In this document: piece after piece, positions 3,188-55,536 of the stretch
Numbering within the stretch: the stretch's first letter is position 1
Layout of the letters: every line of letters begins with the position of its first letter
Assembly (NCBI GenBank): GCA_037308085.1
Contig: CP147779.1
Coordinates: forward strand, 896,001-960,000
Reading direction: 5' to 3'
Source of the DNA: Promethearchaeati archaeon SRVP18_Atabeyarchaeia-1
GTDB lineage: Archaea; Asgardarchaeota; Atabeyarchaeia; Atabeyarchaeales; Atabeyarchaeaceae
DNA: 64,000 nucleotides
The notes under the pieces: generated by a model
What the model was told of the DNA's origin: nothing
Database searches by the model: none
Seen by the model: only the letters and a program-made list of their open reading frames with translations
Translations under genes and position numbers: made by a program

Positions 3188-3437
3188 AGAGACAAGAAGC
3201 CGGTCTCAGCATAATCGCCTATCGACGCCCAGGTTCGATCGGCCTTCTTTGTGAAGATAGTAAACGAACTTGGTATTTAATGCGTCCCGAACATATGATT
3301 ACTGATTGGCACTATAGGCAAGTCCGAAACAGAGAGAGTAGGATGTGCTCAAGGTCACCCCTTTCTTCGTCTAGTTCCCTTTTCCAGCACTCTTCGGTTC
3401 ACAATTCGCAGTCGATATCGCACCGATTAAATGCTAT

Positions 3438-4695
3438 GGTTCTGTTAACTCTTCGGGTGGTGAGTTAACTGGGTGGCATCTGCTCCGGGGATTACCTTTT
3501 CGCCTCCAGGGTTCCCCTTCACCACTTCACCTGCCACTCCCTTCAGGCTGAACCGCAGCCCTGCACCGACAATATTCAAAGCCGCGTTCACGTCCCTGTC
3601 TACGAGCTTCCTGCAGCGTGGACAGTAGACCTTCCTCCCCGCGCATTCGACTATCTTAGAGCCACATATCGCGCAGGTTGAGGAAGTCTTGCTTGGATTA
3701 ACGTAAAACACGTGGATTCCCTCCCAGTGTGCCTTGTAATCTATTTGCCGCTGCAGCTCGGCGTAGCTCCAGCTGTTCATCCTTGCCCTGTAGTCCTTGC
3801 CCTGCCAGTTTCCCCTCCTGTAGAGTTTACGGATGCCTCTAATGTCCTCCGTGACTATGCCGAACTGGTTTTCCTTCGCTTGCTTCACTATCCTTGCTGA
3901 AGTGTTGTGCAGGATCCAGTTTACCTTGTTCTTCTGGATTCTTCCATATTTGGAGTAGAGCTGTCTCTTGACGCGGCAGTCGTCTCGCTTGAAGCCGCGC
4001 TTTGCTTGCCTGCAGTTCTCCTTGACCACGGTCGCCCTCGACAAGTCATACCTCTTCACATCTCCAGCCGAGGACGCAGTGGTTACATTGTCGAGGTTGC
4101 GGTCTACCCCGACTAGCCCCACAGGCTCAACCTGAGCAACCTCTTTCGTGAAGGCTAGTGACACGGCGGAGGCGGTCAAGCAGGCCGAGCGCACAGCACA
4201 CCCCTCAATAGACTGTAATGTGTAGGAGTTCAGGGGGATGTAGATGTATTCTCTTACCCTTACGGGTAGTCTGAGCTCGCCGTTGGTTATCCTGAAGCCG
4301 TAGCAGTCGGTCAGCATGAGCCTTGCTGCATGGGGCTTCTTCATCCTCTGCTGCTTCCCCAGCGCGTGCCTGTGGTTCCGGAGGATGCCCGCGGCCTTGC
4401 TGATCGCCGTCAAGCGGTAGTAGGTTGGCACGTCGTATCCTGCGAGTTGATGGTAAGCCTTCTTTGAGAGCGCCTTCATCGACGTAACATTCTCAGCTAG
4501 GCCAATTCGTATGCAGTCATTCACCATCTCTCTAAACTCGTTCAGGAGGTCGAGTAACTGAGGAGATGGCGTGTAGCTCTGCTTGACCGCCTTGACCGCT
4601 TGCATACCCAAGAAAGAGACTATTTCGGCTAATAAAACCACCATATGACCAAGGGGCTAGCAGCGCCAACTATCACTCGAAGAGTTATCAGAGTG
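3438..4695 (-). mobile_element. Non-autonomous TnpB-carrying element with imperfect TIRs and perfect 8-bp TSD
   Basis: TIRs 3438-3466 (GGTTCTGTTAACTCTTCGGGTGGTGAGTT) and 4668-4695 (reverse complement CACTCTGATAACTCTTCGAGTGATAGTT); AATGCTAT at 3430-3437 and 4696-4703; no transposase inside. Confidence 0.85.
3445..4605 (-). CDS. tnpB: RNA-guided endonuclease TnpB (intact RuvC D-E-D, Zn ribbon)
   Basis: VGVDRN, VTEDIRG, CAICG...CPRC, DRDVNAALNI; likely start MQAVKAV at 4605 by comparison with the second TnpB. Confidence 0.92.
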   Translation of the reverse strand: MQAVKAVKQSYTPSPQLLDLLNEFREMVNDCIRIGLAENVTSMKALSKKAYHQLAGYDVPTYYRLTAISKAAGILRNHRHALGKQQRMKKPHAARLMLTDCYGFRITNGELRLPVRVREYIYIPLNSYTLQSIEGCAVRSACLTASAVSLAFTKEVAQVEPVGLVGVDRNLDNVTTASSAGDVKRYDLSRATVVKENCRQAKRGFKRDDCRVKRQLYSKYGRIQKNKVNWILHNTSARIVKQAKENQFGIVTEDIRGIRKLYRRGNWQGKDYRARMNSWSYAELQRQIDYKAHWEGIHVFYVNPSKTSSTCAICGSKIVECAGRKVYCPRCRKLVDRDVNAALNIVGAGLRFSLKGVAGEVVKGNPGGEKVIPGADATQLTHHPKS

Positions 4696-4855
4696 AATGC
4701 TATCAATCTTTATATAGAGATTTTTCTCTCTTTTCGCACAGATAAGATAATAAATTCGGCACACCGTTCATATTCGTTTAGACTATGATCTAATTCTGCC
4801 TGATGTTCAAGTCTGACCTATATCAATGTATAAGCCCGGAGGTAGAATTCGAGCA

Positions 4856-53614: not shown

Positions 53615-54176
53615 GCTCTCCAGAACCAAGGTTTGCGAGAGCAACTCCCAGTAGTTTGTGAAGGTAGGGTCATACGGTGGATTCTTTTTTTGGACCGGCA
53701 ACCCTTCACTATTTTTTAAGACCCTGCTGACTAAGATGACCCCATAGGTAAATATGACTTTGATTGAAGTTTAGCGGTTCGAGATCCGATAACGGGTTTA
53801 TGCAAGTCCCGTCGTTTTACCCTTTCCTCTACGCATGGATTCCTCTACTCTTCGACTTCGCATCTAGACCATCCTAAATCGCGCTGGATGCGCGATTAAC
53901 GCGCTTACAAAGTGTTCAGGGGTCCGCGATTTCCTGCTGCAGCCAAGAAATCAATAGCATTAGGAACGTCACGAATAACTCTTTTGCAAGTAAAGAAATT
54001 GTGATAGTCCGCACCAATTATCTGAGCCGAGATACTCTCTTAGATTTGTCAACTTGGTTATTACGCGAGTTACAAAAGAGTAAAGGCCAGCATACCAAAA
54101 AGCAGACTGGGCGCGTGTTTCGAAGCAAATCTCTTCGATGTCGATAATATCGCTTTTCCCAGAGCTTACAAATAAG

Positions 54177-55465
54177 GGTCCTGTTACCTCTTCGGTTGGT
54201 GAGTTTAAATAAGAGCTTTGGGTTGTCTAGTTTTATGCAGGCAGCTAAAGCGGTGCAAATACCGTACGAGCCCAAAAGTTGCGTTCTCAGCCTCCTCGAA
54301 ACCTTCAGAGATATGGTTAACTATTGTATCCAAGTTGGCCTAGAGAGGAATATGGCCTCAAGGTTCAGGCTACAAAGTGAGGTATACCACCAGCTAAGCC
54401 GTTTCGGACTCCACACCTGGTACACCCTCTCAGCCGTCGAGGTTGCCTGTGCTATTTTGAAGAACTACCGGAAAGCGAAGAGAAAGCGGCAGGACGTTAG
54501 GGTGCCGAGAGCCACGAAACTCACGGCTAAACTGGGAAATCAGGGTTATAGAGTTGTTGAAGGCGAACTGAGAATACCGATCAAGCCAAGAGAGTTCTTC
54601 TACGTCCCCTTGCACAAGAGGGCAGCGCAGTTCCTATCGGACGCCACGCTCAAGTTAGGCTCAATAACCTTGACTAGCACGGTTTCAGTGGTCTTCTCGA
54701 AGACCGCTGAGGTCACCGAACCGAGAAGCTATGTGGCGTACGACACGAATGAACGCTCAATAGATGGAGCCTACGTAAACGATGAGGCGGAACTGACTGT
54801 TGAAAGCCATGATTTATCGAGGGTTTCCGAGGTTAGGCACGGGTACTTTGAGCGAGTGCGGAGGACTCAAGCCAAGTACGCGAGAGATAGGCGGGTGGCA
54901 CGGAAAATCCAGAGGAAGTGGTTCGCCAACCAGAACAACAAGGTCAACACGATCTTGCATCAGGTGAGTTCAGCGATAGTTGGAAAAGCGAAAACCAGGG
55001 AGCACGGTATTATCCTCGAAGACCTTAAATATATTCGCAGGGCAATTAACAGAAGAATCTTGGGCGTCAACAGCTTCAACGGGAAAATTCAGAAGATAAG
55101 TAAGCACTCTAAGAAACTTAAGCGAAGACTGAACTCATGGAGCTTCCGCAAGCTGCAAACCTTCATTGAATACAAGGCATTGTGGACGGAAGTCAAAGTA
55201 GTCAAGGTGAACCCTTGGAATACTTCTGGGGTCTGTGCGGTGTGTGGGTGCGTTATGCGAGACCCGAAAGCGAAAACCCTGGAATGCTGCGGGATAGGCC
55301 GCCACGTAAATGCCTGCTTGAACATGCTGAAAGCCCAAGATGAAAGCCTGCGGTTCAGGCTGGATCGCTCCGCACATGTAGCCGTGATTAGTCCCCTAAG
55401 CAAGGCTATGAGCCAAAGCGGAGAAGTTAACCCAAACGGTTATCAAGCGCAGAGGTAACAGAACC
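54177..55465 (+). mobile_element. Second TIR-bounded TnpB element
   Basis: TIRs 54177-54202 and 55440-55465 (21/26 match); flanks CAAATAAG and TAAATAGG (6/8 degenerate TSD). Confidence 0.8.
54235..55458 (+). CDS. tnpB: TnpB-family protein with atypical RuvC-III (GRHVNA)
   Basis: VAYDTN, ILEDL, WSFRKLQTFIEYKA, CAVC...CC, GRHVNACLN. Confidence 0.88.
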   Translation: MQAAKAVQIPYEPKSCVLSLLETFRDMVNYCIQVGLERNMASRFRLQSEVYHQLSRFGLHTWYTLSAVEVACAILKNYRKAKRKRQDVRVPRATKLTAKLGNQGYRVVEGELRIPIKPREFFYVPLHKRAAQFLSDATLKLGSITLTSTVSVVFSKTAEVTEPRSYVAYDTNERSIDGAYVNDEAELTVESHDLSRVSEVRHGYFERVRRTQAKYARDRRVARKIQRKWFANQNNKVNTILHQVSSAIVGKAKTREHGIILEDLKYIRRAINRRILGVNSFNGKIQKISKHSKKLKRRLNSWSFRKLQTFIEYKALWTEVKVVKVNPWNTSGVCAVCGCVMRDPKAKTLECCGIGRHVNACLNMLKAQDESLRFRLDRSAHVAVISPLSKAMSQSGEVNPNGYQAQR

Positions 55466-55536
55466 TAAATAGGTATTAACCACTACTTTCCTACATCGCC
55501 GCTACGTTTGGATGCACAGAGAGAGGCGACCTCGCA

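Follow-up and report, generated by a model that had tools for sequence, protein, structure and literature searches.

Within the window analysed here, a 64,000-nucleotide stretch (G000:C1:896001-960000) of the 2.81-Mb single-contig genome of Promethearchaeati archaeon SRVP18_Atabeyarchaeia-1 (G000), lie two short TnpB-encoding units that we call elements 1 and 2. Element 2, which by direct reading of the sequence spans 54177-55465 (1289 bp), is the subject of this report. We hold with high confidence that it represents a TnpB/omegaRNA cassette enclosed in ends like those of the IS6 family of insertion sequences and presumably mobilised in trans. The explanation that accounts best for the observations as a whole, and which we consider probable, is that element 2 is an old non-autonomous copy, moved by an IS6-like DDE transposase encoded elsewhere in the genome, with its TnpB serving in homing or retention.

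The ends of element 2 are clearly related to each other and to those of element 1. The first 26 nucleotides (54177-54202) are identical to the reverse complement of 55440-55465 at 21 of 26 positions, and the left end (54177-54205) is identical to the right end of element 1 (3438-3466) at 26 of 29; the corresponding binomial tails are 4e-9 and 4e-13. A repeat search pairs 54177-54198 with 55444-55465 at 19/22, which gives the left terminal inverted repeat (TIR), GGTCCTGTTACCTCTTCGGTTG, on the + strand and the right TIR on the - strand, the latter also recovered in the RNA alignment described below. When up to three mismatches are allowed, a 22-nt consensus of the ends matches the window at 3 places and none of 100 dinucleotide shuffles. 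Both ends start with GGTTCTGTT, in agreement with the published IS6/IS26 consensus. The consensus of the ends across the family is GGTTCTGTTACCTCT, and its positions 1-9 are identical to the IS6/IS26 consensus GGTTCTGTTGCAAA, a family in which G1, G2 and G7 are near-universal and the target duplication measures 8 bp (Harmer & Hall 2019, PMC6807381).

The 8-mers adjoining element 2 are CAAATAAG (54169-54176) and TAAATAGG (55466-55473), alike at 6 of 8 positions. The initial annotation had read them as a degenerate target-site duplication (TSD) from an older insertion, and comparison with two other Atabeyarchaeia genomes, G001 and G002 (Candidatus Atabeyarchaeum deiterrae Atabeyarchaeia-2), bears this out. 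The orthologous sites upstream of atpC are unoccupied in both relatives and hold the 8-mer in a single, uninterrupted copy, reading GCTTA-TAAATAGG-TAACAATCAC in G002 and TTTA-TAAATAGG-TAGCGATCAC in G001, where the window reads GCTTA-CAAATAAG-element-TAAATAGG-TATTAACCAC. Both differences fall in the left copy, and the duplication is real and not a matter of chance; the empty sites show the insertion and its 8-bp duplication directly, with the right copy being the ancestral one. An old date is consistent with the two substitutions in the left copy, with the mismatches of the repeats to the family consensus (one in the left, two in the right) and with a synonymous divergence (dS) of 0.57-0.76 between the tnpB gene of element 2 and its paralogues. 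All the counts first given for the unit (its length, 21/26, 26/29 and 6/8) were reproduced. Both junctions are bridged without a single mismatch by metagenome contigs from two independent studies (four runs examined), and the insertion is therefore fixed in the sampled populations.

Element 2 belongs to a family, as had been proposed, and is not a one-off arrangement. A 14-nt core of the repeat occurs 31 times in the genome with at most one mismatch, against about one occurrence expected, and allowing two mismatches yields about 16 inverted pairs, mostly about 1.27 kb apart, in a genome with 44 TnpB-like matches. Fourteen of 18 end-bounded genomic units are flanked by 8-bp duplications of at least 6/8, seven of them perfect. 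The three tnpB units that have no duplication are those with internal deletions, and a search among them for reciprocal flanks, as a sign of recombination between copies, found none. Metagenomic relatives at 27-79% identity have ends beginning GGTTCTG and perfect 8-bp duplications, and in nine metagenomic copies the duplications match at 8/8 or 7/8. The E2 lineage comprises element 2 and about 11 further copies at 73-82% amino-acid identity, several of them broken by stops, while the E1 lineage comprises element 1 and three others at 74-84%. Element 1 (3438-4695, - strand, 1258 bp) encodes a TnpB with the canonical DRD motif and a C4 zinc finger; its ends pair at 17/19 (3441-3459 with 4674-4692), and it is flanked by the perfect duplication AATGCTAT (3430-3437 and 4696-4703), preceded on the left side of the element by TTG. 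The two TnpB proteins had been described as visibly divergent, and at 36% identity (BLASTP, E 2e-71) they are indeed divergent, yet clearly homologous.

Element 2 itself has no transposase gene, and the ends had been interpreted as conserved for a common transposase acting in trans. Candidates for that role exist. Only two genes of the IS240/IS6-type DDE class are encoded in the genome, and each lies inside a larger transposon that has the same ends, an 8-bp duplication and no tnpB. The first transposon, of 4419 bp (G000:614149-618567), is flanked by TGAAAAAA/TGAAAAAC and encodes a transposase of 251 aa; the second, of 6554 bp (G000:549276-555829), is flanked by a perfect duplication, TGGAGAAC, and encodes one of 383 aa with SWIM and zinc-ribbon domains at its N-terminus. 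The two proteins are 78% identical and match PF13610 (IS240 DDE) at 64-65 bits, against a cut-off of 27, and their best NCBIfam match is the IS6 model NF033587, full-length and ahead by more than 20 orders of magnitude. We designate them IS6-like because the IS240 Pfam cut-off is passed and the IS6 model is the best NCBIfam match, though under its own cut-off. Both ends of the 4.4-kb transposon equal the right-end consensus of the E2 lineage (24/24), and the right end of the 6.5-kb transposon agrees with an E1 right end at 23/24, which hints at two cognate pairs of transposase and end. The proposal of mobilisation in trans thus stands, with the single partner originally envisaged giving way to two transposase variants and two end subtypes. 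We considered whether each TnpB lineage is strictly tied to one end subtype and dropped the idea, as E1-like copies in the sister genome G001 carry the other, 'ACC', subtype. At no point, among the genomic units and the fetched metagenomic relatives, were tnpB and a transposase found together in one element, and when the loci of those relatives were searched by tblastn with both transposases, none of the metagenomic tnpB copies had a transposase within 1 kb. The anatomy of the units, the duplications throughout the family and the empty site all indicate insertion in trans with duplication of 8 bp.

The tnpB gene of element 2 (54235-55458, + strand) encodes 407 amino acids, and its TAA stop falls within the right repeat, 7 nt short of the element's end. 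An archaeal TATA-box-like motif, TTTAAATA (54204-54211, + strand), lies 24 nt upstream of the ATG and is kept in the left ends of other copies, which suggests that it drives a leaderless tnpB mRNA. The protein scores 49.8 bits against PF07282 (cut-off 26.3) and 63 bits against TIGR01766 (cut-off 32); against NF040570 it reaches 80.3, under the cut-off of 100, and the E1 protein 123.6. Its AlphaFold2 (AF2) model has a predicted local distance difference test score (pLDDT) of 87.7 and a predicted template-modelling score (pTM) of 0.79, and the best Foldseek matches are Cas12f and ISDra2 TnpB (E 1e-14 to 1e-12, TM about 0.6). Instead of the canonical D-E-D triad, the RuvC positions are D170, E262 and H357, and histidine occupies the RuvC-III position in all E2 copies (DRHVNA). 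Among 52 aligned relatives this residue is Asp in 26, His in 21, Gln in four and Asn in one. The zinc finger is reduced to CxxC...CC, with an adjacent CC pair, where element 1 has CxxC...CxxC, and is thus not of the C4 type. Pairwise ratios of nonsynonymous to synonymous divergence (dN/dS) among six intact E2 genes are 0.13-0.23, a range which argues that the His form and the reduced finger are maintained by purifying selection.

These features raise the question of whether the E2 protein still cuts DNA. It is rather unlikely, in our judgement, that it is a nuclease-dead, RNA-guided DNA binder serving as a repressor or as a marker of target sites for the transposase, even though the canonical catalytic Asp is missing in all E2 copies, the window copy lacks the neighbouring Asp as well, and the available text of Altae-Tran et al. 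(PMC10691335) describes regulatory or transposition functions for derivatives of TnpB that are nuclease-dead. D170 and E262 are invariant or near-invariant, and the E2 lineage is still multi-copy and mobile, with a motif of its own beside the duplication. In addition, the available text of the same paper describes a clade, RIIIr-4, with the same Asp-to-His change at RuvC-III and no C4 zinc finger, and argues that it is likely active (Altae-Tran et al. 2023, PMC10691335). Like RIIIr-4, as far as that text describes it, E2 has D/E/H at the RuvC positions and CxxC...CC in place of the C4 finger; unlike it, no RHH/MazE partner is seen beside element 2, and the closest relatives mix Asp and His forms.

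The 3' end of tnpB appears to be read as RNA as well as protein. A predicted omegaRNA scaffold (55339-55465, + strand) overlaps tnpB over its final ~37 codons and runs to the terminal base of the element. RNAalifold, applied to the last 230 nt of 13 E2 copies, places stems at 55345-55361, at 55368-55423 (enclosing 55389-55408) and at 55439-55459, and the last of these hairpins takes the right repeat (55444-55465) as its 3' arm. Six pairs show compensatory changes on both sides, 95.9% of the alignment cells can pair, versus 33-42% when the partners are slid, and the covariation exceeds that of all 500 shuffles. Two independent signs agree that this stretch is probably constrained as RNA: synonymous divergence is lower over the last 62 tnpB codons in 13 of 15 pairs, and residues 371-407, encoded by 55345-55455, are disordered in the AF2 model. 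An Rfam search of the scaffold returned zero family matches. As a separate observation, contig depth summed over 55372-55435 peaks 10-20-fold above the flanks in the four metagenome runs. Compared with the remainder of tnpB, this part of the scaffold is far more repeated in the communities; deletion derivatives or miniature inverted-repeat transposable elements (MITEs) may account for this.

A short motif precedes the duplication. In element 2 it is TTA (54166-54168, + strand), directly 5' of the left TSD copy, and the same trinucleotide stands there in 9 of 14 E2-lineage insertions. Across 48 non-redundant insertions with a defined left flank, drawn from G000, G001, G002 and metagenome contigs, T occurs at position -11 in 38 and at -10 in 41. 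Both are T in 33 of the 48 left flanks, against 4 of 38 at the mirrored right position (Fisher 5e-8). The third base at these TT sites follows the lineage of the nuclease: E2 insertions have A in 9 of 10 cases, E1 insertions G in 5 of 5, and those of other lineages T in 13 of 18. The unoccupied sites of G001 and G002 already contain TTA, so the motif does not come with the element. The simplest reading is that TTA (E2) and TTG (E1) are the transposon-adjacent motifs (TAMs) of the respective TnpBs, and we have moderate confidence that the E2 protein would use TTA, together with a guide that starts in the TSD, for homing.

The same motif could arise from a target preference of the transposase, or from AT-rich composition, with TnpB playing no part in where copies persist. 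We think this distinctly unlikely. DDE transposases do often favour targets rich in A and T, the flanks as a whole are A/T-rich, and one side of the 4.4-kb element with a transposase likewise reads TTA; on the other hand, the preference of a dimeric DDE enzyme should be symmetric, and the motif is found only on the side upstream of tnpB. TT stands at -11/-10 in 69% of cases, as against 13% at other upstream offsets, and the third base tracks the TnpB lineage despite the common family of ends.

On the explanation that we favour, element 2 would open with an IS6-like left repeat and a TATA-like box, followed by a leaderless tnpB and, overlapping its 3' end, an omegaRNA scaffold that ends in the right repeat. 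The IS6-like DDE transposase of either G000:614149-618567 or 549276-555829 would act in trans on the shared ends and duplicate 8 bp, possibly by the copy-in, or cointegrate, route that membership of the IS6 family would imply. Since the predicted scaffold extends to the element's final base, its transcript would continue into the flank and the guide would open with the 8-bp duplication, the right TSD copy (55466-55473) supplying its first 8 nt. In the unoccupied allele the 8-mer matched by the guide is preceded by TTA. TnpB may recognise TTA and the guide match at such empty sites and cut them, whereupon recombination would copy the element in, homing or retention of this kind being its most likely role. 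Insertions that happened to land beside the motif of their lineage would be preferentially kept, which could leave TTA (E2) or TTG (E1) before the duplication.

Several points weigh against this explanation. The transposases score 116-121 bits against NF033587, just below its cut-off of 125, and archaeal 'IS6' elements may form a separate family according to Harmer & Hall (PMC6807381). The case for mobilisation in trans is built from sequence; the omegaRNA with its 3' end, the guide and nuclease activity of the His variant are all predicted, and the window copy reads IGRH where its paralogues read IDRH, with Gly replacing the neighbouring Asp. TTA is absent from 5 of the 14 E2-lineage insertions. 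In the four metagenome runs there was no contig linking across element 2 and no polymorphism between empty and filled sites, contigs being apt to drop rare variants. Finally, IS6-type copy-in takes place without donor excision, so the retention role of TnpB in IS605 elements is not directly transferable.

This last point is also where the wider interest of the family lies. The known role of TnpB in restoring the donor site after scarless excision derives from IS605 and IS607, and IS6-type transposition never excises. Two divergent TnpB lineages nevertheless appear to persist under purifying selection within IS6-like ends, each with its own motif, which would make a case for TnpB as a module that serves purely in homing or drive and does not depend on transposase chemistry. 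The family amounts to a natural experiment in which two nucleases and two motifs are combined with the same ends, and would offer compact archaeal TnpBs whose motifs, TTA and TTG, are simple and one of which has a His-variant active site. A bolder idea, that TnpB on its motif, with or without guide pairing, helps to position the IS6-like transposase, is to our minds highly improbable; if true, it would be a natural TnpB-assisted DDE transposition and an Asgard minimal analogue of CRISPR-associated transposons, with two lineages following different site rules between the same ends.

That element 2 should instead be an ordinary IS200/IS605-type tnpB-only element (IS1341 group), moved by a Y1 TnpA, with its 'TIRs' being subterminal hairpins seen twice, is hardly credible. 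The genome does encode three Y1 transposases, and each end of the element has some hairpin potential. IS200/IS605 and IS607 elements, however, have neither TIRs nor duplications (PMC13565253), and here 14 of 18 units have duplications of 8 bp, the 8-mer stands only once at the empty site, and the loop bases agree in inverted, not direct, orientation. No Y1 gene adjoins an E1 or E2 copy, and the TnpBs that do adjoin Y1 genes are only 24-28% identical. The Y1 genes lie at G000:C1:1573364-1574933, 1955413-1956890 and 478195-478557, two of them beside distant TnpBs; classical IS605 elements coexist in this genome with the IS6-ended TnpB family. Element 2 resembles the TnpB elements of the IS200/IS605 group (ISDra2, IS608; IS1341 group) in protein family, in fold, in the short motif 5' of the guide-matched site and in the predicted omegaRNA scaffold, which overlaps the 3' end of tnpB and stops at the right boundary. 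In that group, Y1 transposition is of the peel-and-paste kind and TnpA inserts beside the TAM, whereas here the ends are of DDE type and the 8-bp duplication separates the motif from the element.

Equally remote is the suggestion, which for omegaRNA structure the initial annotation had set against its own proposal, that the ends of elements 1 and 2 are alike merely as conserved omegaRNA or promoter sequence, with no shared transposase: the right repeat does lie within the last hairpin of the predicted scaffold, and the likeness of left and right ends extends a few bases past the 22-nt repeat (26/29), but the left repeat is outside any omegaRNA and upstream of promoter and open reading frame (ORF), identical repeats bound two DDE transposons without tnpB, and their first 9 nt equal the IS6/IS26 consensus (PMC6807381).

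Mobilisation in trans by an IS6-like transposase has precedents and departures among known systems. TnpBs associated with DDE transposons that have inverted repeats, together with solo TnpBs that have the same ends and are presumably moved in trans, were reported in 2023 (Altae-Tran et al., PMC10691335). As in the branches DDE-1 to DDE-6 of the available text of that report, TnpB here lies within an inverted-repeat transposon, the 3' end of tnpB is less than 250 bp from the transposon end, and the ends of solo tnpB units match those of transposase-bearing elements, implying mobilisation in trans. The DDE partners of TnpB named in the accessible parts of the literature are IS630 (PMC10691335) and ISL2, IS630 and IS1031 (review, PMC13565253). 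IS6 is not among them, and the partner here is IS6-like, an overlap with DDE-1 to DDE-5 being possible; a TAM-like motif directly before a variable 8-bp duplication is likewise not described for those branches in the available text. Literature searches for TnpB with the IS6 family returned only unrelated co-mentions, and for Atabeyarchaeia with TnpB no result. What would be new here, as far as the available text of the 2023 report allows the comparison, is the use of IS6-like ends as a vehicle for TnpB, DDE-linked TnpBs as such having been published then.

The family shares with IS6/IS26, including archaeal 'IS6-like' clades, ends with GG at positions 1 and 2 and G at position 7, the first 9 nt, the 8-bp duplication and the match of the partner transposases to the IS240 DDE domain, and one of these transposases has an N-terminal zinc-finger extension like that of the 'long' clades. 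Typical members of IS6/IS26 measure 0.7-0.9 kb and carry the transposase only, whereas the transposase units here measure 4.4 and 6.5 kb and carry cargo, most members of the family carry tnpB instead of a transposase, and the transposases fall just below the NCBIfam IS6 cut-off. Fanzor proteins in eukaryotic DDE transposons are comparable in being TnpB-family nucleases that travel as passengers in transposons with TIRs and TSDs; their TSD is short and fixed (TA, TTAA) and is read as part of the TAM (PMC13565253), while ours is of 8 bp, variable and, as predicted, matched by the guide, in a prokaryotic host. [quoted passage not shown] Altogether, the arrangement would exemplify the swapping of cargo modules between transposon backbones in Asgard archaea.

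The cargo of the 4419-bp transposon consists of an HxlR-like helix-turn-helix protein, a DUF5678 protein, a retropepsin-like protein, a DUF4325 STAS-like protein and an unassigned 272-aa ORF, and its left end resembles the right end of E2 for some bases past the repeat. The 6554-bp transposon carries a 995-aa Eco57I/MmeI-like restriction-modification enzyme. Elsewhere in the genome, an intact E2 copy (G000:C1:1251822-1253116) lies about 0.9 kb from a truncated E1 copy without a duplication (1254037-1255002), forming a local cluster. At G000:C1:704576, 763241, 2365331, 2479692 and 2685312 there are solo or short-unit ends in which the same repeat is followed by a different inner sequence beginning with GGTTGGCATGTTTTCATATGG; these resemble the left ends of the E1-like copies of G001, and are probably tnpB-less miniatures. 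G002 holds a single E2 copy (G002:C1:2273157-2277380), whose dS to the G000 copies is 0.47-0.75. This is well below the synonymous divergence of the atpC orthologues of the hosts, which suggests that the family moved between the two Atabeyarchaeia lineages after their split.

Element 2 lies between a gene for a TRAM-domain protein, upstream, and atpC, which encodes subunit C of the A-type ATPase (PF01992), downstream. Its target (54160-54176 and 55466-55480) resembles the TATA box, TTATAAATAGG, of the operon for the A-type ATPase, which may now rely either on read-through from tnpB or on a promoter of hybrid origin. The TRAM gene and element 2 are separated by 562 nt of intergenic sequence (53615-54176) with 88% identity to G002 outside a single 61-nt indel, whereas in the adjacent atpC orthologues of G000 and G002 synonymous sites are saturated (proportion of synonymous differences, pS, 0.75). 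This stretch occurs once in the genome, was not found upstream of atpC in G001 and gave zero family matches in an Rfam search; it may represent a regulatory region or non-coding RNA that is conserved, or may reflect a recent exchange between the two lineages.

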